DNA of 64,000 bases from Leptonemataceae bacterium (GTDB lineage: Bacteria > Spirochaetota > Leptospiria > Leptospirales > Leptonemataceae): contig OZ245742.1 of NCBI GenBank assembly GCA_965227295.1, forward strand, positions 5,088,001 through 5,152,000, read 5' to 3'. The notes under the pieces are model-generated. The model worked only from the letters and a program-made list of their open reading frames with translations, was not told the origin of the DNA and ran no database searches. Shown piece after piece: positions 9,948 to 63,684 of this stretch. Within the stretch, counting starts at the first letter, position 1, and the number at the start of each line of letters is the position of its first letter. Position numbers and translations under genes: made by a program.

Positions 9948-12900
9948 CTACTTGCTCGACGGAATTGCATTAATGAGACGCTGGATTTGCTCCAATGCGT
10001 CGCTGTTTTTGACACCCTCGTCTACCGTCGAAGGATCGATGAGTGTCACGCTTCCGGTCTTTACGTCGACCATAATCTGCGGATCCCCCACGCTGATCGG
10101 TGGGATACCGTTATCAGGATCTCCGCGCAGAAACTTGTGCAATTCCTTCAGTTTTTTCCGGGTCTTGTCGCGCATGGCGGGCGGCGCATCCGGAGCTTCC
10201 TTCTTGATCTTCGAGAAATCGGTCTTACAGTTGTGTCCCTTCAGCTTACGCATGAGCACACCGTAACCCTCCTCTCCTCTGCCGATGTTTTCCATTCGAC
10301 GAACTTCACTCGCGTCGACAATATCAACCTTCGCCCCCCGGGCCGCCTTGAGATTCTGGAGTTCCTTGAGTCTCCTCACCATCCCACGTAAGGCGTCCGG
10401 GTTGCGCGGATCCAGCGGTCGGGCGAGGACGACATCGTTTATGGGCTTGCCCGTCTTACGATCGAACAGGTCGTAGATCTGTTTTTCGTCGCCTTTCGCA
10501 CCATTGCGTGCCTCGCGTTTAATATCATGGGTCTCAAGTTTATCCCACGTTTTTTGGAAGCGGCGAAGGTACGACTTTAGACCGCATGCGAGACAGTCAT
10601 CCGCATCGTTGTCATTGTGCACCAACCACGCCGCGTCACCCGCGAAGTAGTTATGATCGCCCTCGACCTCGATGTTGAAGATCGGCTCGCTGCGTTTTAG
10701 TTGCCGCGTTTCAATACTCGTAATCGCCGCGAGTTCACCGTCCACCGGACGCAGGCGATCGCCGACCTTCAGGTCTTTCGCCGCGACCCACTCCCCGCGC
10801 TCCTCGATCCAGAACGGGTGGTTGTCGGTAGCGGTGATGGAGTCCTGGCCGACACGAATGTCGTACCAAACGATAGTGATGTCCCGGAAAAGCTGCGTAA
10901 CCTTGCGTTCGGTCGCTTTACCGGTCGCGGTATCGAAGGCGAGCACTGAATCACCGATGGCCAGATCTTCAATGTTTACCCGACCATCCGGCGTGAGTAC
11001 CGGCGTTCCGGAGGGCAGACATTTGGTACAGACGGAACATGCTGCCAGGCCGATCTTATCGAGTTTGTCTTTGCTCTTGCGTGACGCCCCGGCGACCAAC
11101 TTATCCAGGGCCTTCTTGCTCTGCTTCCCGATCATGTCGCCGACTTTCGTGCCGCTTGCCAGGTCAAAACCCGCAAGAGCGATGCCCAGGTAGTCGGGCT
11201 TACGAACGGCAACGATAAGGTCCGCCGCGGCGATAAAACGACCGAGCCCCGGCACAAAGCTGGCCACGGTTCCCATCGCCGGGTCTCCGCCGGCCTCGGA
11301 AATCGCCTCGGCAAACTTAAAAAACTCCTCTATGTGAAAGTCGCCGGTAACCAGAGCAACGGCCGCCTCTTTCACATTCGAGAGCTTATCACCCGCCTCA
11401 TTGATGAGACCCAGGGCGATCTCTCTGGCAGTGTCGAGGTACTGATCAAGCAGGCCCTGTTCCCGATCTTCGTCATTCGTATGTTCCAGGCCGGGCTGTT
11501 CTTTTTTCATGGCGGCTTCGAGTTCCGCCGCGTAACGTTGTTTGATTATCTCCTTCGCCGCCTTGCGCCGCATCAGCGCGGCCTGGGCGCGTTTCTCCTG
11601 GGCGTCGCGGTACTCCTTGCCGGACTCATACTCCGTCAGCCACTCGGACACCCACTCGTCCGGCGTCTTCGCCTCACCGTTCGCAGTGACCCACTTCGTA
11701 GGTTTACCGGGAACGACCTTTAGAATGCTCTCGGGCGATTGAGACGAGGGTCGACCGCTCAGTTCCACTCGCAGTGCGTTCAGCGCACGATTGTAGACGG
11801 CGTCGTTGTAGTCGCGCTTACCCGCATCGAGGCCTTCTTCCAGGGCCTTCGCGGAACCACCGTTGAGATTCAGCTCCGGATCCGGGATCCCATCCAGGCA
11901 CTGGACCTGCGATTCGCCTGTAAGATTAATGCATTTGTCGATCGCCGCTTTACGTTCGCTGCGGCTGTCGCCGGTGAGCTTTGCCTGCTCGGATACGAAC
12001 TGCTGACCGACCGGAGAATTCGCCATCCAGTAACCGACGAACTCTTCTTTGGTCAGCTTGAGCATGCCGCCCGTGTCGCCTCCCCCCAGGTCGATCGGCT
12101 TGATATTCTCGCAGACGATGTAATCGCCTTCCGCGTAGACCTTCCTGTTGTCGCTGTTCAGAGCCGATCCCGTCTTTTCCCAGGGAATCTGCTTCTCTAC
12201 ATTCGATAGTTCCCCATCGAACACAACGTTGTACATCGCCTCGGTAAACGAACCGTCGCGATTTACGTAAGCCGGATCCGCGATGGGAAAGGTAACGCGT
12301 TTCTCGCTCGTGCGATCCCATCCCGAGGCTACTCCCGGGGGATCCCAGATCGAAGCCGTGCCTCCCATATCTCGCGAACGCGCGCTATCGAGGTTGCCCG
12401 TGAGCAGACTGAGCGTATCCTGTTCGCCCATAACGGAATTCAGTAACGCCGGATCGAGTTCGATGCCGGTCAGGTCACCGATTTCCTCTGCAATAGAGGC
12501 GAGTAATTCTTCCTCGTTGATATCGTAGGTAAAACCGTCTTCGTCCAGGCCGGCGGTAATGCCGTGTCCGGACAGCCCCGCACCGAAGCCGTTCTCGGTA
12601 TCGTAACCGCCGCTCAGATCGAAGCCGTTCACGCTGCCGCTGGTACCGATCGAGGCGTTGCCGTTGGAATCGGCGCCGGCGTTAACATTCACACCGTCGA
12701 TGTTACCGCTGACGTCACCGGAGACGGTGCCGTTGCCGTCCACACCCGCGTTGACATTGACGCCGTCGATATTCCCGCTGACGCCGCCGGACACGTTGCC
12801 GTTCGAATCCACGCCGGCATTCACGTCGATCGCATTGCCGTCCGGATCTTCTCCCGAAATGCTCGTGGAAACATTGCCATTGGAATCGCCGCTGACACTC

Positions 12901-15900
12901 ACATCGGTGCCGTCGATGGAACCGGACACCCCGCCGCTGATCGTTCCATCGGGTCCGATGCCGGTCGTCAGCCCAACGCCGTCGATATGCGTCGTAACAC
13001 CGCCGGTGACGTTGCCGTTCTCGTCGACACCCGCATTAACGTCCGTGCCGTTGATGTTACCCGCGACGCCGCCGGTGACGTTGCCGTTCTCGTCCACGCC
13101 CGCGTTCACATCCGTTCCGTTGATATTACCTGACACACCACCGGTGACGTTGCCGTTCTCGTCCACGCCCGCGTTCACATCCGTGCCGTTAATATTACCC
13201 GCGACGCCGCCGGTGACGTTGCCGTCCTCGTCCACGCCCGCGTTCACATCCGTGCCGTTGATGTTACCCGCGACGCCGCCGGTGACGTTGCCGTTCTCGT
13301 CCACGCCCGCATTCACATCCGTTCCGTTGATATTACCTGACACACCACCGGTGACGTTGCCGTTCTCGTCCACGCCCGCATTGACGTCCGTTCCGTTGAT
13401 GTTACCTGACACACCACCGGTGACGTTGCCGTTCTCGTCCACGCCCGCATTAACGTCCGTTCCGTTGATGTTACCCGAGACATTGCCGGTTACGTTGCCG
13501 TTCTCGTCGACACCCGCGTTCACATCCGTGCCGTTGAGATTGCCCGCGACGCCGCCCGTTACGTTGCCGTCGCCGTCGACGTCCGCGTTGACATCCACAT
13601 CACCGATCGTACCCGCAACACCGCCCGTTACGTTCCCATTCTCATCGATACCCAGGTTCAAATCCAGGTCGTCGATGCTGCCCGTGACGCCGCCCGTTAC
13701 GTTGCCGTTTTCGTCGCTGCCCGCATTTACATCGACGTCGTCGATGTTGCCGGCCAGAAATCCCGTCCAGCCGTCGGGACCGAGGGCAAAACCGCCGTCC
13801 AGGTCCCCATTTGAATAACCGCCGGAAGCAGTGAGCCCCGTGGAGGGGTTGTATGCCAGATCCGCGAAGCCGTCTTCGCCGTCCCAGTCCACCGATGCGG
13901 AGAATCCGGTCGCAGGATCGTACAGGACACCGCCGGACAACGTGTTCTCGTCGTCGACGAGCGAGGCTTGAAGAGTCGCGGCTTCGAGATTGCCGGATGC
14001 ATCGAAGTACAGACCGCCCGTCGCGCCCAGACCGTTCCCGGCATCATCGAAGTCCTCATAGCCCGCCACGACCGCGGCGCCCGTGAATCCGGACCGATCA
14101 AACTCCATGGCTCCGGCGGCGGAAAAACCGTCATCGTTCGAGTAACCGCCATCGAGTCTTCCGCCGGTAACTCCTGTTCGATCAAAGTTAAGGCCCGCCG
14201 TCAGTCCCAGGCCGTCCTCCCCGTAGCCGACCGTAAGGCTCCCGCCGGTAACACCCTGGCCTTCTTGAAACGAAAGACTGCCGCCGACCGTGAAGCCGGT
14301 GTCGCCGAGCGGCAGCGCCCCGCCGATGGAACCGCCGAAGCCGTTCTCCGGATCGTACGTCAGGCTGACGCTACCGCCGACCTGCTGGGCAAAAAGATTT
14401 GCGTAGGCTCCCACACCGGAGGCCGCGGCCTGCTTTAAGATCGTATCCGTATCTTCGCCGGCAAGATAACCTTTATAGGCACCCTTCGCCGCCATGTATC
14501 CGGCAAACGCCGCCGAGCCCCAACCGCTGCCGACGGCCGCGGCGCCGGCCACTTTTTCACCGGCCTGCACGGCCGTTCCCAGGGCCGGATTGTGATCGGC
14601 GTTTCGCCAGACGTAGGTCGTACCGAGCGTCGCCACGTCCTCGGGCTTCGGCTGTGCCGCTTCCTGCGCGGCCTTCTTTTTGTTTTTGTCGGCGATGGTC
14701 GTGCGCTTCAGGAAACCGGCGAGGCCGGGAATGCCCGTCGCCTCTTCCAGTTTTTCCGCGACGAGTTCATCGGTGTAGGCCTGGAAGGCGGCCGTCATGT
14801 TTTCGCCGCTGAAGTCGACACCGCCGCCCGAAACGAGCCCGCTCACGAATCCCGCCGGCAGACCCGTCGCATCGACGATCGCCTGGGCGATGAGATTATC
14901 CGTTTCCGTTTCCACGTAATCACGGACGGCGTCCTGCGCCGACATGCCGCCCATCATCGACGTGAAGATGCCGGCCGGGAACCCGGTGACCTCGGCGACA
15001 TGCGCGGCCACCTGATTCTGCATATGATTCGTGACGGCCTGTTGCAGGGAAATGCCGCCGGAGAACATCGCCGTGGCGATGGACTGCAACTGCGACATGA
15101 AGCCTTTCTTCTTTTTCTTGCGTTTAATCTGAGCCTGGATGTCGTTTTGAAAATTCTGAAAGTTGTCGACGGCAGTCTGATTGGCGGCCTGGAGAATGCT
15201 CTGCACACCCTTGAACTTCGCTTCGAGTAATTCCTGATTCTCCGCGACGTTGTCCTGATACTCATCGATGACCGCGGATCGATCCCACTGCTCGAAGACG
15301 TTGCCGGTATCCACCATCTTCACCGGCGGCGGCGGAGCGATGTTCAAAGCCTGCTCGGTGAATTCGGCGTCGTAGTCATCCGCGGAGAGACCGGATCCGC
15401 GGTTATGAACGGCGCGACCGCTGTGAATTTGTCGGGTGGCGCTGATCGAGCCGTCGGCGTTGATGGTAGTTTCGAAACCCTCCACGCCGATGCCGCTGAT
15501 GTCCTGGCCCTGCGCCACCGCGGCGATCCGATTCGTCGCCTGTTCGCGCTGCTCGTGTATGCGACGGTTCAGCTCCGATGCCAGGGTCAGCTGGGCGACA
15601 CCGCGCGCGCTCTGATTAAAACTCTGCGCGACCCCGTTCAACAGTGAGAAGTCGGGGGCGTTCCCGCCGCGTTCCAGCAGCGCATCCGTCCCCGCCACGC
15701 TGCGTTCGAAGACATCGCCTGCCGCGGCCACCACGGCCAGCGCCCGCTTCGTCGCGTTTTCATCGAGGGGGGCCGGCGCCGCGGCCTTGCCTGCGACCAC
15801 CGCGCGCCACTGATTGCGGCCGTTGCGATACTCGGTGAGCATGCCCGCGTACCAACGATTGCGCTCCCCGACGATCTGCCCCACCGCGGCTTCGTAGGCC

Positions 15901-50961: not shown

Positions 50962-53157
50962 TCACTCAATCGTATCGAGATAACGCCCGCGTTCCAGTTC
51001 CGGGGTAATGCGATTGTCCGCCGACGCGCTGCCTTCGTACGTCGCGCGCAGGCCGAAGTAGAAGAACCGCGGCCGGATGGGGTTGATCTCCGGATCGTAC
51101 TCGTCGAGCATGTTGTCGACGCCGGCAAAAAGTTCGTAGTTCTCCATCACGCGCTTGAAGACGCGCACCCCGAGCAGATGATACGGATTGCGGTAGTCGA
51201 AGCCCTGCTGCGGAAAGTCCGGGTTAAGTTCCACCAGACCAAAGCTACGGTCCTGGGCGATCGCACGCAACGGCGCCTCGAAATCCTGATCGAACGTAAA
51301 CGTGGAACGATCGAACGTAAACACGGCCTCTTCGGTGTAATAGTACGCCTGCGGACCGTAGACGGAACCGTTGATCGAAAAACCGAGGCCCCAGGGCAGA
51401 TACTCGTATTGCAGGCGATACGTGCCGCGGTGTTCGGCCCGCCCTTCGAGCGGAATCTTCTGCTCACGATCCCAGGTCTGCGTAAACGTATAGCCCACAC
51501 CGAAGCGCAGCGCCCGGGAAATGCGAAAGTCCGCGAAGAGTTCTCCGCCGCGGGTGTAGGCCTTGCTGATGTTGACGGTTTGATAGCGCTGCAGACCCGA
51601 CGTGGTGCGACCGGACACGGCCTGAAAGTCGATGAGGTTCGTGATCGTATTATAAAAACCGTTCACGGATAAGTAGAGCCAATCGATGGGCTCGAACTCG
51701 ATGCCGCCGTTGTAGCTGATGGAACGTTCCGGGTCCAGGTCCTCATTGCCGACGACCTCGTAACCGACGCCGGGATTCTGAAACGTAATGTACAGATCCT
51801 TAAACGCCGGCGCGCGGTAGCCGACACCGACGCTGCCGCGCAAACGCAGATTTTCGAAGGGATCGAGGCGCGTGGCGAACTTCGGCGTGGTCTGCGCGCC
51901 GAACTGCGAGTCCTCGTCGTGGCGGACCCCGGGCACAATCACCCAGTTCGGATCGCCGATCACTTCCCACTCATCCTGCAAGAAGACGCCCACCCGCGTG
52001 CGATTTACGTACTCATCCTCGACGCGCGGCGAGATCAGTTCATCGAAGCCGACGTCCACGCCGGTACTGATGAAATGGTCTTCGAACACACGATAGTCGA
52101 ACTGCACGCGCCCTTCCTGGGTGCGATCGTCCTGGGTCTCGAAGGTATCGAGCTCGTCGGAGTCGCGCTGGTCCCGGTCGAGACGATCGAAGAAACGGTT
52201 CTGCGAGTACGAAAACGAAAGTCGGCCGTCGTTCGCGAGATACAACACGGGATTGAGCACGCCCATGAAATCATGCGTCTCGCTGCGACGATCAATGACG
52301 GCGCGCGGCGGACTGAAGTCCGTGCGCTCCTGATCCAGATAACGGTAGTTCACGAAACTGTTCACGAGAAAGTTTTCGGTCAACACGAACGTCGAGCGGT
52401 TGCCGACGCCGAGATCGCGAAAGGCCGTACCGGTGCTGCCCTGGATCGACGGCGGCAGATCGTTTTCGTCGAGGAACTCGAACGTCTCGTAAGCCTCGCG
52501 CACCTGGCGTTCCCGCGTATCGACGGGAGCCAGGTCGTAGCCGTCACTGCGCGTCCAGCCGGCGACGAACGTAGAACTTAAAAAATCATTCGAAAGACCG
52601 ACGACTCCGCTGGTACTGAGTTCGTGACCGCTGCCGAAGTTCTTTTCGCGACCGGAGCCGTAGCTTGTTTCGAACTCCGCGCGGATCGGCGCGTCGGACT
52701 TACGCGTGATGATGTTGATGACCCCGCCGAGGGCATCCGCTCCGTAAAGTGCCGATGAAGCGCCCTTAACGATTTCAATGCGTTCGATCTCCTCGGCCTT
52801 AAAACGCGTAAGATCGATGGCGCCGTCCACGCGACCGGTGACCCGCTGGCCGTTGACGAGGATCAAGACGTACTCGGGATCCAGGCCCTGCAAACGTACG
52901 AAGCGACCGCGCAGACCCTCACGCACTTCCACGCCGGGATGATTCTCCAGGGCGTCGGCGGCGTTGCGCGCCCCGCTCTGCACAATGTCCTCGCGCCGAA
53001 TGACCTCGGTGGCGGTGACGCTGTCCTGGAGCAGCTTCGCCCGGCGTTCGCCGGTGACGACGATCTCGGTTTCCAGGACCTCGTCGTCGCCCTGGGCCAT
53101 AAGCCCGGTGCAGACGAAGAACAAGGCAACGGCGGCTAAGATTCGATAATGTAACAT
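50962..53157 (-). CDS. TonB-dependent receptor, probable heme receptor
   Basis: Start MLHYRIL; EIVVTG TonB box; IERIEIVKGASSALYGADALGGVINIIT; YRAP and GNEDLDPE (FRAP/NPNL-like); coupled to hmuY. Confidence 0.9.
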   Translation of the reverse strand: MLHYRILAAVALFFVCTGLMAQGDDEVLETEIVVTGERRAKLLQDSVTATEVIRREDIVQSGARNAADALENHPGVEVREGLRGRFVRLQGLDPEYVLILVNGQRVTGRVDGAIDLTRFKAEEIERIEIVKGASSALYGADALGGVINIITRKSDAPIRAEFETSYGSGREKNFGSGHELSTSGVVGLSNDFLSSTFVAGWTRSDGYDLAPVDTRERQVREAYETFEFLDENDLPPSIQGSTGTAFRDLGVGNRSTFVLTENFLVNSFVNYRYLDQERTDFSPPRAVIDRRSETHDFMGVLNPVLYLANDGRLSFSYSQNRFFDRLDRDQRDSDELDTFETQDDRTQEGRVQFDYRVFEDHFISTGVDVGFDELISPRVEDEYVNRTRVGVFLQDEWEVIGDPNWVIVPGVRHDEDSQFGAQTTPKFATRLDPFENLRLRGSVGVGYRAPAFKDLYITFQNPGVGYEVVGNEDLDPERSISYNGGIEFEPIDWLYLSVNGFYNTITNLIDFQAVSGRTTSGLQRYQTVNISKAYTRGGELFADFRISRALRFGVGYTFTQTWDREQKIPLEGRAEHRGTYRLQYEYLPWGLGFSINGSVYGPQAYYYTEEAVFTFDRSTFTFDQDFEAPLRAIAQDRSFGLVELNPDFPQQGFDYRNPYHLLGVRVFKRVMENYELFAGVDNMLDEYDPEINPIRPRFFYFGLRATYEGSASADNRITPELERGRYLDTIE

Positions 53158-53843
53158 TAGTTGAGCGGGATCTCCGCCCAGCGGAGAGAAGGATAGCCGG
53201 ACGTGCCGGCGGAACTGTAGTAGTCGAGCATCTGGATCTTGTAGTACGTGCTGCCGTCGGAGTTGCGGATGATCAGCACGTCGTCTTTGGCCGTAAGCAC
53301 GTGCGTCGTGGTGTTGTAGTTGAACCATTCCTGCAACACGGCGCTGCCGCTGTAGGTGACGTCGCTCGCGCCCCCGGCCCCGCCGGTCGTGGCGGTGAGG
53401 TTCTGGTCGACGGCGAACTGCGGGCACACCCCGCTCGTGGTGCTGCTGAACTGATTCACGCTGAACACGCTGCTGAAGTTCGTGCTGCCGGTGCTGCAGG
53501 CTCCGCCGCCACCGCTGCCGCTCGTCCCGCTGTTGGTTCCAAGACGAAACCGTTGAAACGACATGTCCCAGGCTCCGATCTGCGCCACGGTCCCGCCGTT
53601 GAAGAGATCGCAGTAGATCGTATTGCTGTTCGACGTCGCGTTCACCGTCGCCGTATAGATGGAGCCGCTGAGGCTGGTCGAGCAGGCGCCGGAGAGGGCC
53701 AGCGCGGACGGGTTCGTCGAGGCCTGGGGCGTGAGCAGCGTCACCAGGTCCTCCAGGTCGTCGTTGCCGCCCTGCTCGTAGCGACAGCCCGCCGCCGTAG
53801 TTGCGACGAGCAGGAGAATGATGAAAAAAGAGCGATGTATCAT
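53157..53843 (-). CDS. hmuY: HmuY-family heme-binding lipoprotein
   Basis: AAGC lipobox; WDMSFQRF..GTNSG; WFNYN; YYKIQMLDYY..AGTSGYPSLRW. Confidence 0.88.
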   Translation of the reverse strand: MIHRSFFIILLLVATTAAGCRYEQGGNDDLEDLVTLLTPQASTNPSALALSGACSTSLSGSIYTATVNATSNSNTIYCDLFNGGTVAQIGAWDMSFQRFRLGTNSGTSGSGGGGACSTGSTNFSSVFSVNQFSSTTSGVCPQFAVDQNLTATTGGAGGASDVTYSGSAVLQEWFNYNTTTHVLTAKDDVLIIRNSDGSTYYKIQMLDYYSSAGTSGYPSLRWAEIPLN

Positions 53844-53886
53844 GGCGTGCACGCGGTCCGAAACCGGGTCTAAACTGGACTGCAAA

Positions 53887-53901
53887 TGAGAAGCAATATC
53901 A
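53887..53901. promoter_or_regulatory. Fur-box-like palindrome
   Basis: TGAGA-AGCAA-TATCA upstream of hmuY. Confidence 0.55.
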
Positions 53902-53981
53902 ATTGAACCAGGAATGGCCAACCCGCAAATCTGACAACGGAAAATTCTCCCGGGCAGGCAGTATGTCATGGATATGTGTTT

Positions 53982-53996
53982 TGAGATTGACTCTCA
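53982..53996. promoter_or_regulatory. Fur-box-like palindrome
   Basis: TGAGA-TTGAC-TCTCA upstream of the divergent lipoprotein gene. Confidence 0.6.
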
Positions 53997-54045
53997 TAAT
54001 CACTCTCCGGAGGCTGTCCAAACTCTCAAATTCAGGATTGCTTGC

Positions 54046-54624
54046 ATGAAATTTAAGAAACCCATGACCCTGACCGCGGCCCTGCTGTTCGGTCTTTCCC
54101 TGGCCGCCTGCCAGCAGAGCAGCGGAGACGACGATGATCTCCTCGGGATCTCGCTCCTGGCCGGCGTCGCCGCCGCCTCCAACGTTCCTCAGCTCGAAGG
54201 CTTCTGCCACTTTTCGTTCGGCTCACGCACGGTGTACAACGTGCCCATCACGACGATGGATTCCGCAAAAACGGAGTCGTTGACTTTCACGTCATCCACC
54301 ACGCGGCGCTGGAGTGCCGTGTACGTCCCGGGCGCCGCGGACGGAACGGTTGTCACGTTCGACTTCAACCCGGCCTATCGCCCGCCGTTCGGATACAACG
54401 AGGACATCTCCCTCGTCCACGTCACCGGCGGTTGTCCGCTGGAATCCTCCACGTCGGACTACAACGTTAACTCGAGCTCCACCGCGCCGCAGACGCCGGT
54501 GAACTATTCGTTCGGCAGCAACACGTTTACGTTTAACTCTTCCGCCCAGGGGAAAAACTTTTTCATCATCGCCGCTCCGGAACTGACTCAGACCACCGGC
54601 TCGACGACACGGACGGACCCGTAA
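54046..54624 (+). CDS. Lipoprotein of unknown function in heme locus
   Basis: MKFKK...SLAAC lipobox; followed by a strong hairpin. Confidence 0.75.
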   Translation: MKFKKPMTLTAALLFGLSLAACQQSSGDDDDLLGISLLAGVAAASNVPQLEGFCHFSFGSRTVYNVPITTMDSAKTESLTFTSSTTRRWSAVYVPGAADGTVVTFDFNPAYRPPFGYNEDISLVHVTGGCPLESSTSDYNVNSSSTAPQTPVNYSFGSNTFTFNSSAQGKNFFIIAAPELTQTTGSTTRTDP

Positions 54625-54630
54625 CATAAC

Positions 54631-54684
54631 GCACGCCCCCGAAGTCCCGCCCCGCGATTGGAGCGGGACTTCGGGGGCGTGTGC
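54631..54684 (+). terminator. Long hairpin after lipoprotein gene
   Basis: cacgcccccgaagtcccgc...gcgggacttcgggggcgtg; right arm overlaps the start of the 330-bp repeat. Confidence 0.6.
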
Positions 54685-55370
54685 GAACTACCCGGGCGTT
54701 TCCGGTAGTTCAAGAGCTGTGGTTCGTTGCGTTTACCGTGAGACACACAAGATAAGTTGCGCAATCGTAAAGGGGTTGATTTGGCTACGGCTCGCAGGAG
54801 TTGTGGATTTTCGTTTTGTTAAGATTGTCCGCCTCGACCCGGACGTCGGTTTGTAACTCAGCTACCGTAGTGTTTCTTACGAAGAAGACGCCGTTCCGGT
54901 CCGCCTTACCACGTTCCCCGACATGAACTCCGCGCGTCAGTTGGAACCAGCCGTACCCACAAAAGGCTTAATTTACGTTGGCCGCCACTTACACCACGAT
55001 TCGGGGCGTGTGCGAACGAATAAAACGTTTCCGGTAGTTCAAGAGCTGTGGTTCGTGGCGTTTGCCGTGAGACACACAAGATAAGTTGCGCAATCGTAAA
55101 GGGGTTGATTTGGCTACGGCTCGCAGGAGTTGTGGATTTTCGTTTTGTTAAGATTGTCCGCCTCGACCCGGACGCTGGTTGTGCGGTTCGGATATCGCAG
55201 CGTTTCTTACGAAGAAGACGCCGTTCCGGTCCGCCTTACCACGTTCCCCGGCATAACCTCCGCTCGTGAGCTGGAACCAGCCGTACCCACAAAAGGCTTA
55301 ATTTACGTTGGCCGCCACTTACACCACGATTCGGGGCGGACTCGAATGAAAAAACGTTTCCGGTAGTTCA
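54671..55370. repeat. ~330-bp non-coding tandem repeat, array 1 (2 full units + partial third)
   Basis: Units start tcggggcg at about 54671, 55001 and 55331; long identical blocks such as ggggttgatttggctacggctcgcaggagttgtggattttcgttttgttaagattgtccgcctcgacccggacg. Confidence 0.95.
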
Positions 55371-55386
55371 CAGAACGCGCCTTTGT

Positions 55387-55980
55387 TCATAATCGAAAGT
55401 TCAATCGCAAACGAAACGTGACCTGGTTCTTGCCGACCTGCGCCGGTATTTCCGGGAACGGGGCGGCGCTGTGAACCGCGCGTAAGGCCGCATCGTTCAG
55501 TCCGTCGTGCGGACTCGCACCGACCAGGGCGGCCGATTGCAACACTCCGGATCCGTCAATCATCACCTGCACCGTAACGACACCCTGCTTGCCCGCGTTC
55601 TTCTCACGCGGCGGATAACGTTTCTTGCGCGCCACCATGGCCCGCACACGCGCCAGGTACTTTTCCAGCTCGGACTCGGCCTCCGCCGTGCCGGCGGCAT
55701 CGCTGCTGCCGGACGTCGGCCTGTCCGGATGCGCCTCGCTGTCTCCGATCGCGGCAGACGCGGGCGGCGGCGAGTCTGCCTGCAGGCGCAACTTCACGGA
55801 CGGCAGAATTTCCAGGCTGTCCTTCCGCTGCGAGGCCGACCCGCCGAAGTCCGTGAGCGCTAACATACACACAACGGATATTAAGAGCAGGATCGGATAA
55901 AATCCCCGGCCGTCCTGGGCCGCGGCCACAACCGCGAACCATCGGTGATTCGCCGACTCAACGCCTTGCTTCATGTTCAA
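55387..55980 (-). CDS. tonB: Energy transducer TonB
   Basis: TM anchor; YPPREKNAGKQGVVTVQVMIDGSG; LNDAALRAV..AAPFP. Confidence 0.85.
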   Translation of the reverse strand: MNMKQGVESANHRWFAVVAAAQDGRGFYPILLLISVVCMLALTDFGGSASQRKDSLEILPSVKLRLQADSPPPASAAIGDSEAHPDRPTSGSSDAAGTAEAESELEKYLARVRAMVARKKRYPPREKNAGKQGVVTVQVMIDGSGVLQSAALVGASPHDGLNDAALRAVHSAAPFPEIPAQVGKNQVTFRLRLNFRL

Positions 55981-56359
55981 TGTTCACCGTCGTCGCGCCG
56001 GCCTGGCGGGCCTCGTCCATCACCCGTACAAAATAACGAAACGGGGTCGCGCCGTCCGCGCGCAACAGGACGTCCGTGCGGTTCTTCGCTTCGATGGCCG
56101 CCTTGAGCGCTCCGGGTAGATCATCCGGCGCCACGGAGCCGCCGTCGAGAAAGACGCCGCCGCTCGCGTCGATGGATACGACCACCCCCGAACGATCGGC
56201 GCGATCCGCGGTCTTCGCCTCGGGCAGTTCCAGTTCCACCACCGGCTTTAGAAAACGCGAGCTGATCATAAAAAAGATCAACAGCAGAAAGACAATGTCC
56301 ACCAACGGCGCGATGTCGATGATCGAGCCCCGCCGTTCCCGCTGCGCGAAGCCCTGCAT
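55958..56359 (-). CDS. exbD: Biopolymer transport protein ExbD
   Basis: IDIAPLVDIVFLLLIFFMI; LRAD...VRVMDEARQAG. Confidence 0.92.
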   Translation of the reverse strand: MQGFAQRERRGSIIDIAPLVDIVFLLLIFFMISSRFLKPVVELELPEAKTADRADRSGVVVSIDASGGVFLDGGSVAPDDLPGALKAAIEAKNRTDVLLRADGATPFRYFVRVMDEARQAGATTVNIEHEARR

Positions 56360-57066
56360 CAGCGCGCCTCCATCGAGACCGACACCGGCGTTGCGCGCTC
56401 CGTGCCGGCCGGCAGAACATCGTGACGCCACTCCTCGAGATGATGCAGCACGGCGTTCATCTTCCGAATGCGCGCGTTTAAGATCGAATGCAGGTAACCG
56501 TGGGCCAGGTGGGCCGGGATGGCCGCGGCCAGCCCGAAGGCCGTCGTGATCATGGCCGTCCAGATGCCCCCCGCCAGCTCGGAGATGTCCGCCTGGCCGC
56601 CGGTGGCCGCAATGCGCTCGAAGGAATCCATCATTCCCAGGATCGTACCCAGGAGGCCGATGAGCGGCGCCACCCCGCCGATGACCTGAAGAATGCCGAT
56701 CCGCCGCTCCATGCGATCGATGACCTCGGCACCGGTACGTTCCACCGCCGCGCCCCGGGCCTCATTGGCCTGGCCGAGGCCGCCGACAAAGACCGCGGCC
56801 ATGCGAAAATAGGCGCTGCCCCGGAGTCGGAGTTCCGACAGCGGCAGCCGATCCTCCGGTCGAAGTTCCGACAGTTGCGGCGCCTCGCCGGACGTGCGCG
56901 CGCGTTCGAGGATGCGGCTGAGCCCGGCTTCGAACTGCGTGAACGGCGTATATGTTAGAAAGAAGTAGAGCCCGCGCTCCAAAAACACGGCGGTACCCAC
57001 GATCAGGAAGAGCAGGATCACCCACATCAGGTCCCCGCCCTTTTCGAAAAGTGTCAGATAGTCCAT
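56359..57066 (-). CDS. exbB: MotA/TolQ/ExbB proton channel
   Basis: APLIGLLGTILGMM; LAGGIWTAMITTAFGLAAAIP. Confidence 0.92.
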   Translation of the reverse strand: MDYLTLFEKGGDLMWVILLFLIVGTAVFLERGLYFFLTYTPFTQFEAGLSRILERARTSGEAPQLSELRPEDRLPLSELRLRGSAYFRMAAVFVGGLGQANEARGAAVERTGAEVIDRMERRIGILQVIGGVAPLIGLLGTILGMMDSFERIAATGGQADISELAGGIWTAMITTAFGLAAAIPAHLAHGYLHSILNARIRKMNAVLHHLEEWRHDVLPAGTERATPVSVSMEAR

Positions 57067-57133
57067 TCTGTGCTGTTTTATTCCTTTTTTTCTTGTCGAA
57101 TGCAGAGTTGTCAGAGATATGTCACACCATACA

Positions 57134-57724
57134 ATGAGAATCAATCTCACTTACAAGCGACTTTTTCTTACGACCGCCACTGCCGTGGTCCTGCTCGGCC
57201 AGAGCGCCTGTCAGAGCGGCGGACGTGGCGGGGTGACACCGCTCATTGAAGCGGCACGCACGGATCGCCCGTCCGAACTGCGCGACCTGCTCGCGGCCGG
57301 GGCCGAGGTCAACGCCGTGGAGACCCGGGACGGGAGCGCGTTCAGTACCCCGCTGCTCTACGCCGTCAGCCGCGGGGACCGCTCGTCGGTGGAACTTCTG
57401 CTCGAAAACGGCGCCGATCCGGAACTGCCGGGCTGGCGCGGACTCACGCCCTTCATGGAAGCGGCCCGCATGGGTCATCCGCAGGTGTTGGAGATCCTGC
57501 AGCGCCGCGCGGTTTCGGTGAACGCCGTCGACGAAGACGGTCGCACCGCCCTGATCTGGGCCGCGCTGACCGGACGCCCGCAGTCCGTGCAGTACCTGGT
57601 GCGCATCCCCGATCTCGAACTGGACCTCCGGGACCTGGCAGACCGCTCGGCCCTGGACTACGCCCGGGAAAGCGGCCGCACCGAGATCGTCCGGCTGCTG
57701 GAGAACGCCGGCGCCGGCTCGTGA
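57134..57724 (+). CDS. Ankyrin-repeat protein with lipoprotein-like signal
   Basis: QSAC; TPLIEAA, TPLLYAV, TPFMEAA, GRTALIWAA ankyrin repeats. Confidence 0.85.
   Translation: MRINLTYKRLFLTTATAVVLLGQSACQSGGRGGVTPLIEAARTDRPSELRDLLAAGAEVNAVETRDGSAFSTPLLYAVSRGDRSSVELLLENGADPELPGWRGLTPFMEAARMGHPQVLEILQRRAVSVNAVDEDGRTALIWAALTGRPQSVQYLVRIPDLELDLRDLADRSALDYARESGRTEIVRLLENAGAGS
57135..57149. promoter_or_regulatory. Fur-box-like palindrome
   Basis: TGAGA-ATCAA-TCTCA between divergent exbB and ankyrin/heme oxygenase units. Confidence 0.6.
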
Positions 57725-57764
57725 TTTTAAAACCATACCACAAATAGTTAACAGGAGAAACTTA

Positions 57765-58442
57765 ATGGGACTCGCTCAGGTTTTACGTTCGGGCACCTCG
57801 GAGGTGCATTCCGAAGCGGAGGGTTCGGCCTTCGTACGTTGTTTTATGAAGGGGGTGCTGGACCGCGCGACCTATGCTCGCCACCTCGAAGCGCTGCACG
57901 CCGTCTATTCCGCCATGGAAGACGGCCTCGAACGGCACAAGGATCATCCGATCGTCTCGAAGATCTACTACCCCGAGGTGCATCGTCGCGCGAACCTCGA
58001 AGCCGACCTCGAATTCTTCTACGGCGACGACTGGCAGAGCAAGATGCAGCCGCCCTCGCCCGCGGTCGTCGAGTACGTCGATCACATTCGTAAGATCAGC
58101 GAGGAGAACCCCACGCTGCTCGTCGCTCATTCCTATGTTCGTTACCTGGGCGATCTGTCCGGCGGGCAAATCCTGAAGAAGGTGGCCGGCCAGACCCTGC
58201 AACTGGACGCGGACCACGGCCTCGCGTTCTACGAGTTCGGCGACATCGCCGGCAAGAAGGAATTCAAAGACATGTACCGTAACGCCCTGGACGGCCTGGC
58301 CCTCGACGAGGCACAGCAACAGGCCGTGCTCGAAGAGGCCATTCGCGTGTTTCGTTTCAACGGTGCGGTCTTCAACGATCTAGAGGAAGAGTTGATCAGC
58401 AACCTCGGTCGCGATCGTTACGAGGCTGCCGTCAGCTCCTGA
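57765..58442 (+). CDS. hemO: Biliverdin-producing heme oxygenase
   Basis: LRSGTSEVHSEAE (proximal His); HSYVRYLGDLSGGQIL; FYEF; AGGAG RBS upstream. Confidence 0.95.
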   Translation: MGLAQVLRSGTSEVHSEAEGSAFVRCFMKGVLDRATYARHLEALHAVYSAMEDGLERHKDHPIVSKIYYPEVHRRANLEADLEFFYGDDWQSKMQPPSPAVVEYVDHIRKISEENPTLLVAHSYVRYLGDLSGGQILKKVAGQTLQLDADHGLAFYEFGDIAGKKEFKDMYRNALDGLALDEAQQQAVLEEAIRVFRFNGAVFNDLEEELISNLGRDRYEAAVSS

Positions 58443-58445
58443 AGC

Positions 58446-59678
58446 ATGCAGCGTTCTACCGATCACAGCGCTCGTCTCGTCCTCGTTTTGATCCTCGGCG
58501 TGATGCTGCCGGCCACCATGCCGGTGACGGTCTTTAAGGAGATCGTCAAGGATCGTTTCGCCGCGGGCAGTGAGTCCGTGGCGTACTTCACGAGCATCGC
58601 CATGTTCGGTTCGTTTTTGTTCGCACCGCTCGCCGGTTTCGTATCGGATTACTTTCGCAACCGGCGCGGTTTCATCGCCGCTTTCGCCGCGATCAACGGC
58701 TGCATGTTCTTCGGCATGGCGGAGGCGAACTCGCTCGCGCTGTTGCTCGTGCTGCGCTTCATTGAAGGCGCAACCAGTGTCTTTGTGATCGGCCTTTTGA
58801 TGTCCGCCGTGGCGGACCGCGAGCGCGGTGCGACGGCCCCCGGCTTTCGCCCGGGAACGTTAATGGGCCTCGCCGGCATGTTGCTGGTGTTGGGTGCCTT
58901 CGTCGGCATTCCCATCGGCGGGTTTATCGGTAAAACACAGCCCATGCTGCCGCTCTACGTGTCCGGAACGCTCATGATCGCCAACGCCGGCCTCGCCCTG
59001 TTCTTAAAAGACGCGGACAGTTTTCACGAGGAACAGTCGCTGCGTCCGGGAGACGCCGTTCATCTGTTGCTGGTGGCCCCGTTGCTGCTCGTGCCGCTCA
59101 TGTTCGCGTTTACGGACCGGTTCACCTTCGGGTTTCTGGTAAGTTCGTTTAATTTACACTTAAGAGAAGGCCTGCAACTGGATCCGGCGGCAGCGGGGCT
59201 GTCCATGGGCATCGTCATGCTGCCCATGGCGCTGCTGGCGTATCCGTCCGTACGCCTGGGACGGCGCGTCGGCATGTTGCCGTTACTTCTGGGCGGCTCC
59301 GCGCTGTACGGCCTCGGCCTCGCCGCCGCGGGGACGCAAAGTTCCACGGAAGGATTGTTTACGTTTCTGGGCCTGGCCGGACTCGGCGCAGGCCTCATGT
59401 ACATCCCGTCCTTGCTGATCGCGGCGCGCCTGGCGCCGGCCGGCTGGAACGCCACGGTCATGTCGATGTTCACGGGCGCGGGTTCGCTGGGATTCATGCT
59501 CGGACCGCTGGTTTCGGCCGGGCTGGAACATCTCTATCGAGTGCGCCTGGATCCGCCCCTGGTCATCCCCGTACTCGCATCTTCGTTCGGCCTCCTGGAA
59601 GTCCTGGCCGTGGCGGCGACGATTCCGTTTTACCGGGCGTTACACCGCGCCGTTACGCGCAGCCACGACGCGGCGTAA
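58446..59678 (+). CDS. MFS transporter
   Basis: About 12 TMs; GFVSDYFRNRR motif A; LRFIEG. Confidence 0.9.
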   Translation: MQRSTDHSARLVLVLILGVMLPATMPVTVFKEIVKDRFAAGSESVAYFTSIAMFGSFLFAPLAGFVSDYFRNRRGFIAAFAAINGCMFFGMAEANSLALLLVLRFIEGATSVFVIGLLMSAVADRERGATAPGFRPGTLMGLAGMLLVLGAFVGIPIGGFIGKTQPMLPLYVSGTLMIANAGLALFLKDADSFHEEQSLRPGDAVHLLLVAPLLLVPLMFAFTDRFTFGFLVSSFNLHLREGLQLDPAAAGLSMGIVMLPMALLAYPSVRLGRRVGMLPLLLGGSALYGLGLAAAGTQSSTEGLFTFLGLAGLGAGLMYIPSLLIAARLAPAGWNATVMSMFTGAGSLGFMLGPLVSAGLEHLYRVRLDPPLVIPVLASSFGLLEVLAVAATIPFYRALHRAVTRSHDAA

Positions 59679-60949: not shown

Positions 60950-61006
60950 CTAAAACTCGACTGCCGGAACTGCTTGCAACTTGACCCCGCGCATTTAATC
61001 AAGCGC

Positions 61007-61708
61007 ATGCCCGAAGAACCACAGTCGCCCAATCCCTACGCTGCGCCGGAAGTGCCGACGCATGTCGCCGTGAACGAGGAGAATTATCCGGACGCGGAGT
61101 GGATGCATCTCATCACCAACCCGCGGCGATTCTTTCAGCATCTCAAGAAGTTTCGGCATCAGAACGGTGTCGTCCTGGTCTTCATCTGGGTCGTGGGCAT
61201 GGCCGGTGTCATCGATCGGCTTTCGGCTCAGACCGCCCGGGGGCGCAGCTTCGATTTTATGATGGATGATTGGGGCGCGTTCTGGTTGGCCGTGAGCGTC
61301 GGCGGTATCGTCGCCGGCGCGGTGGACTGGCTCATCGGCGGGTTCTTGTTTCACATTCGCGTCTCCTGGGCCGGCGATCCGCAGCGCGACAAAACCGACG
61401 CGCGTCTTATTTACATCTTCACCTCGGCGTTGATCGCCGTGCCGACGCTTGCGCTGACCGCCCTGGAAACGGCGACCTATGCAAGCTATCGCGAGTCCTT
61501 CGACTTCGAAGACATCGATGCGATGTATTTGTTGTACCTGTTCGTCTTCGCCGGTATGTTCTATTCACTTTATGTTAGCTACAAGGGTGTGATGGAACGA
61601 TTTCAGGTGAATCCGCGCCTCACGGCGTTGTGGTTTCTGATTCTACCGGGCCTGCTGTACGGAGGTGTGGCCGTTGCCACATTCGCCGTGGCCCTGACGA
61701 TGATGTAA
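61007..61708 (+). CDS. Yip1-like membrane protein, copy 2
   Basis: NPYAAP N-terminus; same motifs as copy 1; start placed at MPEEPQ. Confidence 0.75.
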   Translation: MPEEPQSPNPYAAPEVPTHVAVNEENYPDAEWMHLITNPRRFFQHLKKFRHQNGVVLVFIWVVGMAGVIDRLSAQTARGRSFDFMMDDWGAFWLAVSVGGIVAGAVDWLIGGFLFHIRVSWAGDPQRDKTDARLIYIFTSALIAVPTLALTALETATYASYRESFDFEDIDAMYLLYLFVFAGMFYSLYVSYKGVMERFQVNPRLTALWFLILPGLLYGGVAVATFAVALTMM

Positions 61709-62445
61709 GCGACAGGGCGAACACGGAACCGAGACGAAGACGCCGTTCCGGTGCGCGCCCCACATATCCCCGGCATGACCTCCGACCGTAAGCTGGAACC
61801 AGCTGTACCCACAAAAGTGTTAATCCAAACTGGCCTTAACTTACATCACGATCCGGGGCGTGCTCGAACGAATAAAGATTTCCGGTAGTTCAAGAGCTGT
61901 GGTTCGCGGCGTTTGCCGGGATGAAAATGAAGTAAGTCGCAGTATAGTGAAGGGGATCTTCTGGCTACGGCTGAGCGGGAGTTGTGGTGATTCGTTTTGT
62001 TAAGATTGTCCGCCTCGACCCGGACGTCGATTTGTAACTCAGCTACCGTAGTGTTTCTTGCGAAGAAGACGCCGTTCCGGTGCGCCTTACCACATTCCCC
62101 GGCATGACCTCCGCTCGTTAGCTGGAACCAGCCGTACCCATAAAAGTGTAAATCCAAACTGGCCGCAACGTACACCACGATTCGGGGCGTGTTCGAATGC
62201 ATAAAAAGTTCCCGGTAGTCCAGGAGCTTTGGTTCGCGGCGTTTGCCGTAAGACACAGCAGGTAAGTTGCGCAATGGTTAAGGGTTTGATTTGGCTACGG
62301 CTCGCAGGAGTTGTGGACTTTCGTTTTGTTAAGAATGCTGCATTCGACCCGGACGTTGGTTTGCGACTGCTTTACCGCAGCGTTTCTTCCGACGAAGACG
62401 CCGTTCCAGTGCGCGCCCCACATATCCCCGGCATGACCTCCGTGG

Positions 62446-62487
62446 GTGGGGAACAACTGCCGCGGCCACGACAAGCGTGGCCTTGCC
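62446..62487. repeat. REP-like hairpin inserted in a repeat unit
   Basis: gtggggaacaactgccgc-ggccacg-acaag-cgtggcc-ttgcc; absent from the equivalent position in other units. Confidence 0.75.
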
Positions 62488-62711
62488 CCTGGAACCAGCC
62501 GTACCCATAAGAGGATTAATTTACGTTGGCCGCCACTTACACCACGATTCGGGGCGTGTGCGAATTACCCGAGCGTTTCCGGTAGTTCAAGAGCTGTGGT
62601 TCGCGGCGTTTGCCGTGAGACACACAAGGTAAATTGCTCAATGGTGAGGGGCTTGATTCGGCTACGGCTCGCAGGAGTTGTGGATTTTCGTTTTGCAAAG
62701 ACAGTCCGCCA

Positions 62712-62754
62712 GTGGGGAACCAACTGCCGCGGCCCCAACAAGCGGGGCCTTGCC
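62712..62754. repeat. REP-like hairpin, second copy
   Basis: gtggggaaccaactgccgc-ggcccc-aacaagc-ggggcc-ttgcc, at a different position of the unit. Confidence 0.75.
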
Positions 62755-62881
62755 GACACCGGACGTTGGTCTGTGACTCTGCTATCATAGCGTTTCCCGC
62801 AGCGAGTTTGCGGCTCACAACTGAGTCCGAACGGCCCAACATCGGCGTTGACAGTTTTGCAGATCCGAGCAGAAATTTACC

Positions 62882-63684
62882 ATGCGCCTGAAAGTGGAAC
62901 CGATTGAGATCGATCCAAACGATCCGTTCGAAAAGGACGCTCTGGAACGCAAGAAAAGCGCCGAAATTCTTACCACCTTTGTTCAATCTCTCGATACCAG
63001 CGCCGTACTTGCGATCGACTCGCCGATAGTTAGTGAAGCGCCTGGTGCCGGCCGCGATTAAAGTTGGATCCGCAGGCATCATTGATCTAAATGACAGGGA
63101 TCTTGAAAAGGTGCTGGAAAAAGCCGTCGGTGAAATGGGAGCTGCTTACGCAGAAGAACTCTTCAAAAATTATGAGGAGTCAAAGAAGGCGTTTACACAA
63201 TTCAGGGAATCCCTGGCGAAGTTCGTTCAGGAATTGCAGGGAGATGCCAGGAATGCGGCCCCCTCGTATTCTTCATCGATGAACTGGATCGCTGTCGGCC
63301 GAACTATGCCGCGATTCATCGATTTTGAGTACAGGTTGCATCCGGGGAATCGCATGAACTTCATGACGTTTCTCATGGCACGATACGACCTCGATCGCTA
63401 CATCGGTGAAGACCGAGCCGAAGTTCATACGGGATGCCGTGCAAGGACTCGGTCTCCGATCCAACCTCTGGACGAAAGCAGCCCGTCCGGTATTCGAGCC
63501 CGCCGAACGAAAAGAACTGATCGCTCAACTGTACAAAACCATTGAGTTCGCCGCCCGCTTCACGGACAACAGGAGCACACAGCAGGCCACGGAGAACGAT
63601 TCCACTTTTGAATCACCGTACGCCGGTTATGGCCGCCCCGCCTGGCCGGGTGATATTCCGCCGCAAGACGGCGGTTTACTCTAA
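62882..63684 (+). pseudogene. KAP-family P-loop NTPase pseudogene with internal deletions
   Basis: MRLKVEPIEIDPNDPFEKDALER...VLAIDSP (Walker A missing), out-of-frame PLVFFIDELDRCRPNYA (Walker B), then RFIDFEYRL. Confidence 0.8.

Follow-up and report, generated by a model that had tools for sequence, protein, structure and literature searches.

The 64-kb window (the whole stretch of DNA analysed here) contains two tandem arrays of a 329-bp repeat, and these are two of about 119 arrays of the same family distributed across the genome. With a probability of roughly 0.6, we read the arrays as a family of non-coding, modular interspersed repeats, akin in general kind to the BIMEs of enterobacteria and the BOX elements of streptococci, that spread and then recombined.

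Two arrays of a 329-bp repeat in the window

Tandem Repeats Finder detected two arrays of period 329, at 54697–55370 (2.0 copies, 92% matches) and at 61736–62442 (2.1 copies, 80% matches). Units were placed with a profile built from 65 full-length genomic units, the phase being counted from AGACGCCGTTCCGG. The arrays, their units and the palindromic sequences associated with them are as follows:

54674–55370, + strand: array 1 of the 329-bp repeat, 2.1 units (profile search)
54674–54882 (phase 118–327), 54886–55212 (phase 1–327) and 55216–55370 (phase 1–156), + strand: units of array 1 (profile)
61738–62797, + strand: array 2 of the 329-bp repeat, 3.2 units (profile search)
61738–62063, 62067–62392 and 62396–62797 (phase 1–322), + strand: units of array 2, all starting at phase 1 (profile)
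62443–62489 (approximate), + strand: palindromic insert X (~47 nt) in the third unit of array 2, stem GGCCACG/CGTGGCC
62711–62754 (approximate), + strand: second X-type insert in the third unit of array 2, stem GGCCCC/GGGGCC
54630–54684, no strand assigned: long GC-rich hairpin that borders array 1 on its 5′ side and is related to the H module described below

As the preliminary description had stated, the family recurs about 6.4 kb away in the same orientation, both arrays being on the + strand, and in a different phase; the units of both arrays are 78–93% identical over aligned columns. The block variants that it had listed, ccttaccac against cgccccaca and atttacgttggccgccac against atccaaactggcc, are present in the sequence, as is the block ttgtaactcagctaccgtag common to the units at 54851 and 62032. 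Two palindromic inserts of ~45 nt are nested inside the third unit of array 2 and extend it to 402 nt. The insert at 62443–62489 occupies a loop-like variable block at unit position ~51–55, and that at 62711–62754 lies at unit position ~277, with a stem that is compensatory relative to that of the first. The hairpin at the edge of array 1 has a 20-pair stem (54680–54633 in the terminator-like scan), and its 3′ arm enters the unit at phase ~110–123.

Array 1 fills the spacer between two convergent genes, 53968–54624 (+ strand, no Pfam match) and 55387–55980 (− strand, TonB), and array 2 begins 30 nt past the stop codon of a Yip1-domain gene (60974–61708, + strand). As identified by Pfam, the neighbours in the window are heme-uptake genes, encoding a TonB-dependent receptor, HmuY, TonB-ExbBD, heme oxygenase and an MFS transporter, and downstream of these lie two Yip1-domain genes.

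Copy number and positions of the arrays in the genome

The host genome (G000) is closed, 5.94 Mb in size, with a G+C content of 59.8%. Searching it with nhmmer gave 310 matches to the 329-bp family, located on both strands and covering 69,971 bp (1.18% of the genome), and BLAST with the repeat unit gave 304; with such numbers, the recurrence seen in the window lies well outside chance. The nhmmer matches clustered into 124 groups, which were reduced to 119 arrays of 0.3–7.2 units after removal of small opposite-strand echoes. A protein-coding repeat was ruled out by the stop codons common in all six frames of the unit, by a period (329 bp) that is not divisible by 3, and by the absence of 3-periodic variability, the codon-phase entropies being 0.63, 0.55 and 0.64 and the power at 1/3 ranking 43rd of 164. 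Rfam 15 gave no covariance-model match in the window at the gathering score, the self-cleaving ribozymes included, and a search of array 1 and the congener loci with E up to 5 returned just chance-level matches to microRNAs and snoRNAs. No description of the family was found in the full-text literature that is available without subscription.

Gene positions were taken from a crude purpose-made ORF caller, which yielded 4,527 genes. By these positions, 57 of the 119 arrays lie at convergent, 53 at co-directional and 9 at divergent sites, with 21.7, 75.6 and 21.7 expected, respectively (chi-square p = 3e-16), and array ends are situated ~0–30 nt away from stop codons. The genes of the window are syntenic in the congener G001, where the spacer corresponding to that of array 1 (TonB side) is empty and 23 bp long; therefore, the arrays are insertions into very short 3′ spacers, which largely explains their abutment to stop codons. 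These results show that the family spread within its own lineage into very short spacers behind stop codons, mostly at convergent sites. At co-directional sites 29 arrays are in sense and 24 in antisense orientation, so that no orientation preference is seen there. Placement by GC skew revealed that 74 of the 119 arrays, including 40 of the 57 at convergent sites, are oriented against the leading strand; this bias is a modest signal that could point to a single-strand step in the spread of the family.

Modular organisation of the unit

The unit consists of a module A (unit ~1–140) and a module B (unit ~150–327), the latter containing a core of ~75 nt. Arrays are B-A-B-A strings in which either module may stand at the start or the end: among the 86 arrays of at least 0.9 unit, the start phase is 1–19 in 35 and 40–179 in 48, and the end phase is 120–219 in 53 and 300–327 in 27. 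Both modules also occur alone, as 9 solo A copies (phase 1 to ~140) and 14 solo B copies (~150 to 315). Solo B follows the stop codon of a co-oriented gene in 11 of the 14 cases, the remaining 3 being overlapping opposite-strand matches, and all 9 solo A copies adjoin the stop codon of a gene on the opposite strand. The orientation of each module towards the gene next to it is therefore constant.

Modules A and B have a 20-nt inverted repeat in common (unit 62–82 against 218–238, 17/20 matches), and facing pairs of cores occur near 776 kb and near 1,378 kb, where one and the same copy scores as B when read on one strand and as A when read on the opposite one. Because of this inverted repeat and these two loci, we interpret module A as an inverted copy of B that has diverged, and the unit as a tail-to-tail dimer plus a linker. 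If the B core acts at the RNA level as proposed below, the inverted A module would give a related element to the convergent gene, as REP does in E. coli. The core contains the motifs CTAC(GG) and GACG/CGTC; it is 75 nt long and forms no simple palindrome, the basic unit of a REP being an imperfect palindrome of 20–40 nt with a GTAG or CGTC tag, and inspection of the H, X and Y palindromes (45–62 nt) by eye showed no such tag.

Three palindromic modules were found in addition:

H, 62 nt: 46 loci, all but 2 inside arrays; leads or interrupts many arrays
X, ~45 nt: 32 loci, 26 inside and 6 outside arrays; nested in units
Y, 60 nt: 13 loci, 0 outside arrays; nested in units

The stems of all three carry compensatory variants. 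A strict pattern for H detected 36 copies in the same orientation, 35 of which lie in, or at most 128 nt from, arrays.

Conservation along the unit is block-wise. Of its 327 columns, 88 carry at least 1.8 bits and 72 less than 1.0 bit, and five runs of 8–15 nt are nearly invariant (AGACGCCGTTCCGGT, CTGGAACCAG, GGAGTTGTGG, TCGTTTTG and TCGACCCGGACG). This exceeds what would be predicted for a purely selfish, decaying repeat; neutral decay, which the preliminary description had named as a possible refutation, does not in its plain form account for such a distribution of conserved and variable columns.

Reassortment of the variable blocks

Each variable block is represented by a few discrete alleles, as in block 18–31, whose top variants occur in 39, 13 and 13 copies, and the pairs of columns with the highest mutual information all fall inside blocks. 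Reassortment was scored for five blocks with multi-nucleotide alleles, at unit 20–25, 51–54, 127–135, 236–239 and 270–275. All 66 of the 66 possible pairwise allele combinations were observed, and 8 of the 10 block pairs were unassociated (p > 0.2), even at a spacing of ~35 nt, with two weak exceptions (p = 0.018 and p = 0.0024). In addition, the inter-array distances obtained from four quarters of the unit were uncorrelated among 102 near-full units (r 0.004–0.057). Recombination among many copies, as had been proposed from the two window arrays, is well supported by both the allele combinations and the quarter distances.

The p-distance is 0.155 for adjacent units versus 0.204 overall, and the closest relative of a unit is an array mate in just 31 of 74 units. 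The distance data support a combination of frequent short-tract exchange among dispersed copies with local duplication as the probable process. Unequal crossing-over would lengthen and shorten the arrays, and gene conversion over short tracts would reshuffle, among the ~300 copies, the few alleles available for each variable block; the mosaic blocks noticed earlier in the window are probably the outcome of this reshuffling.

Terminator-like hairpin of the B core and RNA structure

Two hairpins recur in the units of the window:

61964–61988, + strand: B-core hairpin P1, CTACGGC, loop, GAGTTGTGG, three G-U pairs, then ATTTTCGTTTTG
54785–54806, 55114–55135, 62295–62316 and 62662–62683, + strand: other copies of P1 (terminator-like scan)
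62362–62381, + strand: junction hairpin from module B to the next A (unit 296–315), the stem block of the preliminary description
54851–54870, 55182–55199, 62032–62051 and 62771–62790, + strand: other copies of the junction hairpin (sequence reading)

P1 is a 9-pair hairpin, including the three G-U pairs, that is followed by the U-rich ATTTTCGTTTTG; it was found in every unit of both arrays, and the motif of hairpin plus U-tract is present in every B core of the genome. The mean fold of 75 distinct copies is −9.0 kcal/mol on the + strand versus −1.8 kcal/mol on the − strand. This + strand hairpin and the fixed sense of the solo modules suggest a 3′-end role at the RNA level, and the B core may, though at less than even odds, act on its + strand as an RNA-level terminator or 3′-end hairpin for the preceding gene. 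Among sequencing runs, those listed with a 9.2-kb stretch are all of DNA type, as contigs, and none is of RNA. A strand-specific terminator role is weakened by the 29 sense and 24 antisense arrays at co-directional sites and by the congener cores, only 5 of 9 of which follow a co-oriented gene. The congener cores also form the hairpin poorly, with A-C and G-A mismatches, which counts against a 3′-end RNA role. The B core resembles intrinsic (Rho-independent) terminators: on the sense strand it has a 9-pair hairpin that precedes a U-rich tract, and its solo copies are located shortly past stop codons; however, it differs from them in that 75 nt are conserved, far beyond the need of a terminator, in the poor hairpin of the congeners, and in the presence of arrays in both orientations at co-directional sites.

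A wider RNA-level interpretation, which we consider unlikely, takes the repeat for a structured RNA, be it a non-coding RNA in many copies or a 3′UTR element, with the invariant blocks as stems, the variable blocks as loops and linkers, and H, X and Y as tolerated expansion segments. Several observations agree with it. In the RNAalifold consensus of 49 units, 34 pairs lie within invariant blocks and form a closing helix (unit 4–18 with 280–293), two hairpins in A, and P1; the variable blocks 49–54, 237–243 and 301–310 fall in predicted loops, with X and Y inserts in or beside them. Many of the one-sided changes are from G-C to G-U and suit the + strand only, P1 is stable on that strand alone, the nested hairpins change in a compensatory manner (one of them with a C(UUCG)G loop), and the solo modules keep a fixed orientation toward the neighbouring gene. 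However, compensatory covariation is absent from the helices: 2 of the 34 pairs show any double change, the covariation term contributes −0.91 of −24.8 kcal/mol, and observed pairing equals expected pairing at every helix tested.

The junction hairpin is the case in which stem covariation, possibly with selection on structure, had been suggested in the preliminary description. Its stem pairs unit 296–300 with 311–315 at the B-to-A junction, the 5 bp can form in most units, and the three stems quoted earlier are present at 55182–55199, 62362–62381 and 62771–62790. The stem varies solely by one-sided transitions (U-A to U-G and G-C to G-U), and its Watson-Crick counts equal the expectation under independence at 7 of 7 pairs (n = 155–179). 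Swapping arms among 116 distinct units did not weaken the fold (−4.31 native versus −4.37 chimeric, z = +0.52). In 49 of the 79 insert-free full units, 80.6% of cells are paired versus 82.0% after shuffling, the observed pairing being reached by 500 of 500 shuffles and a double change occurring in just 2 cells. Pairing is at the level of chance in all three tests, in stems that are almost invariant and so limit the power to detect covariation, and the suggested selection on structure was not supported.

Other helices gave similar results. Neither P1 nor the second hairpin at 280–293 shows covariation. A long A-B hairpin formed from the 17/20 inverted repeat was rejected, its 67:233 counts fitting independence and showing no covariation and the consensus scoring 25 against its own reverse complement, with shuffles at 21.3 ± 4.2, and so was an alternative core structure of some congeners (UUUUUGC/GCAAAGA, ACGG/YCGU), for which 78.8% of cells were paired, a value reached by 176 of 500 shuffles. 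The sole long-range double change, at pair 249:282 (T:A 183, C:G 10), was regarded as a lineage signal rather than a helix, because it is confined to ancestral-type solo copies and has no neighbouring pairs. Among 21 diverged core copies, two candidate core structures were without covariation, and the 21 most diverged cores have no consensus structure (−0.59 kcal/mol). The whole-unit fold is no better than that of shuffles on either strand (z 0.4 and 1.4). Against a structured RNA stand also the lack of an Rfam family and some H copies with C-A mismatches on the + strand that are G-U on the opposite strand.

Distribution outside the genome

The sole part of the family known beyond the host genome is the ~75-nt B core, GGCTACGGC..GGAG.TG.GG.....CGTTTTG...TCG(A/G)CCCGGACG. 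Exact-pattern searches counted ~107–120 copies in the host genome, depending on the pattern, 6 in G002 and ~4 in G001, the three genomes being of the same genus, and no relationship was seen between the flanks of the different congener copies. The pattern was found 0 times in 400 other genomes sampled from the phylum, and 39 other genomes of the family gave just chance-like matches. When all species representatives were scanned with the ancestral form, just two MAG assemblies came back, and JGI metagenome contigs yielded no further B core. About 10 solo copies in the host genome retain congener-type bases (GCGG, GGCCCGG). By its occurrence in the congeners, the ~75-nt B core would be older than the species.

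Origin and spread of the family

No target-site duplication was defined, because the array ends are ragged, and neither a parent IS nor a dedicated transposase was found in the genome. The host genome gave 0 matches to the Y1/RAYT transposase domain (PF01797), for which the control search was positive in 6 of 14 reference genomes. Nor was the TnpB zinc-ribbon domain found in it; a search for Y2 transposases was uninformative, its control being positive nowhere. The genome has 10 reverse-transcriptase (RVT_1) genes in multi-copy sets, none of which adjoins an array. The 20-nt inverted repeat and the conserved blocks have 0 copies in the genome outside the arrays. A place for the family among MITEs, which have target-site duplications and terminal inverted repeats matching an autonomous IS in the genome, is not supported, given this last result and the ragged ends.

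It is conceivable, but quite improbable in our estimate, that a terminator-like 75-nt 3′-end element of the genus came to propagate itself in one species, where, dimerised with its own inverted copy into a two-faced module serving both genes of a convergent pair, it reached ~120 gene ends, with no RAYT-type enzyme and with its ~300 copies in concerted block-wise exchange. Given the 40:17 bias at convergent sites, such an element would perhaps have spread through single-stranded DNA at the replication fork. If this is true, it would be a new transposase-independent route to mass-produced 3′UTR or insulator elements, and its invariant blocks would be read by a host factor.

We see only a slim chance that the arrays are DNA-level platforms for a nucleoid, topoisomerase or insulator-type protein, with the invariant 10–15-nt blocks as its sites; a role of this type has been proposed for BIMEs. 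The nearly invariant runs amid freely varying blocks would be expected of such platforms; the genus-wide core, which keeps its primary sequence without conserved structure, and the orientation of the arrays against the leading strand are also consistent with them. However, there is no candidate protein, no gene is consistently linked to the arrays, and the 4–6 copies in the congeners are too few for a chromosome-wide role.

Another explanation is that of a satellite that arose from a small circular or self-cleaving RNA, copied by rolling circle or by reverse transcription, and was integrated as permuted multimers. Head-to-tail arrays with varied start and end phases and the presence of 10 reverse-transcriptase genes are in line with this, but the phases are not random and coincide with module borders, the reverse-transcriptase genes are away from the arrays, no known ribozyme family was matched with E up to 5, and the solo half-units and the older solo core account better for the build-up of the arrays, so that we consider such an origin very improbable. 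Finally, although conserved scaffold blocks are interleaved with variable blocks of 5–20 nt, the guide-like role (CRISPR-, bridge-RNA- or omega-RNA-like, on foreign or genomic targets) that had been raised for the variable blocks is scarcely credible, since the alleles are few and common to tens of units instead of unique, blastn of array 2 against 50,697 phage and 72,556 plasmid records gave no match, and no TnpB-type or Y1 gene was found.

Comparison with known interspersed repeats

A non-coding modular interspersed repeat, the reading that we prefer, has known counterparts. The arrays are extragenic, lie downstream of ORFs, and consist of alternating units iterated in tandem, which is the layout of REPs and BIMEs, the latter having an alternating Y/Z arrangement. 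REPs are described as located downstream of ORFs and forming inverted pairs, those of the CGTC type having no dedicated transposase (PMC3733652, in part); REPs have also been described as dual 3′UTR regulators (bioRxiv 10.64898/2026.03.23.713779, in part). The 329-bp family and the BIMEs or REP doublets of Enterobacteria and Pseudomonas are alike in being extragenic mosaics of modules in alternating orientation, with conserved linkers and tandem iteration, in their location downstream of ORFs at co-directional and convergent sites, and in their restriction to a species or genus (PMC3733652, in part); BIMEs and REP doublets are also thought to be terminator or stabiliser elements of 3′UTRs (PMC3733652; bioRxiv 10.64898/2026.03.23.713779). 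They differ in that their units are ~40–100 bp, whereas the unit here is 329 bp, and in having a simple palindrome of 20–40 nt as core, which the core here is not. Furthermore, no RAYT/Y1 is present here, the arms have diverged to one 20-nt inverted repeat, and the alleles of short blocks reassort freely.

Pneumococcal BOX elements (boxA-boxB(n)-boxC) are similarly modular composites in which an inner module is iterated variably, and SPRITE combines a duplex with a U-rich tract near 3′ ends (PMC3049150, in part). According to the same part of that source, BOX, RUP and SPRITE are enriched between convergent genes, as the arrays are, boxB copy number is variable, and all three are considered non-autonomous parasitic elements (PMC3049150). 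BOX has defined end modules, terminal inverted repeats, target-site duplications and a likeness to IS ends (PMC3049150), whereas for the 329-bp family fixed end modules, duplications and a parent IS were not found, and the unit, arranged as (B-A)n at ~119 loci, is several-fold larger. BrickBuilt, a MITE with an internal minisatellite from Porphyromonas gingivalis, shares with the family the intergenic location, the restriction to a species, the non-coding nature and the tandem repeats, with a leader and a tail (PMC4596501, in part); it differs in its 23-nt unit, its 19 copies per genome and its small inverted-repeat ends (PMC4596501), compared with a unit of 329 bp at ~119 loci here.

The 329-bp family seems to add a new relative to the mosaic intergenic repeats already known from bacteria. 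We place it with the BIME/BOX kind and yet regard it as distinct because of its unit size, the lack of a RAYT or parent IS, and the free reassortment of short blocks.

Significance

Modular interspersed repeats are known from few well-studied groups, and how they move without a RAYT or parent IS, and whether they serve the host, are among the questions still asked about them (PMC3733652, in part). The 329-bp family is an unusually rich case: a single closed genome, from an uncultured lineage of which little is known, has ~300 copies of a large unit whose conserved blocks are clearly set apart from the variable ones, and the older solo core in two congeners would represent its starting state. 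For annotation, the ~70 kb of arrays are best masked as repeats rather than called as small ORFs. The near-complete reassortment of short block alleles may make the family a natural system for studying the tract lengths of gene conversion among dispersed repeats.

Orientation and origin of the 329-bp repeat

With replication direction in the host genome taken from GC skew (minimum at 1.18 Mb, maximum at 4.09 Mb), the + strand of the repeat unit was opposite to the leading strand in 74 of the 119 arrays, and at convergent sites in 40 of 57. The orientation of the arrays is thus biased relative to the replication direction inferred in this way. Ten RVT_1 reverse-transcriptase genes were found genome-wide, none of which (0/10) adjoined an array of the repeat. 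They included multi-copy sets of equal score and length (two copies of 624 aa, two of 472 aa and four of 456 aa) and single-copy genes of 561 aa and 341 aa; the genes look like active group-II-intron-type retroelements. Examples on the host contig (C1) were:

C1:40883-41494, RVT_1 gene
C1:765390-766001, RVT_1 gene
C1:32821-33507, RVT_1 gene

Facing pairs of ancestral-type cores were located at two loci:

C1:776230-776640, facing cores (L039)
C1:1378520-1378910, facing cores (L040)

At both, the second core copy was of a type between module B and module A read in reverse complement.

Other features of the window

12652-13748, tandem repeat with a 69-bp period (10.9 copies at most)
50962-59678, heme-uptake cluster
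62883-63545, ORF region directly past array 2

The 69-bp repeat, for which periods of 138 and 207 were also scored, is probably a coding repeat inside a large protein, since its period is a multiple of three. Genes of the heme-uptake cluster encode a TonB-dependent receptor, HmuY, a product of 218 aa that matched no Pfam family, TonB, ExbD and ExbB, as well as a protein with ankyrin repeats, a heme oxygenase and an MFS transporter; the receptor-to-ExbB stretch, which the comparison covered, was syntenic in congener G001. Past array 2, the ORF beginning at 62883 was interrupted by stops (two in the translation of 62883-63050), and the 170-aa ORF next to it (63033-63542) gave no match in a Pfam search; the region may be a decayed gene adjoining the array.

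Ancestry of the unit

The facing cores are likely living relics of a dimer ancestral to the 329-bp unit.
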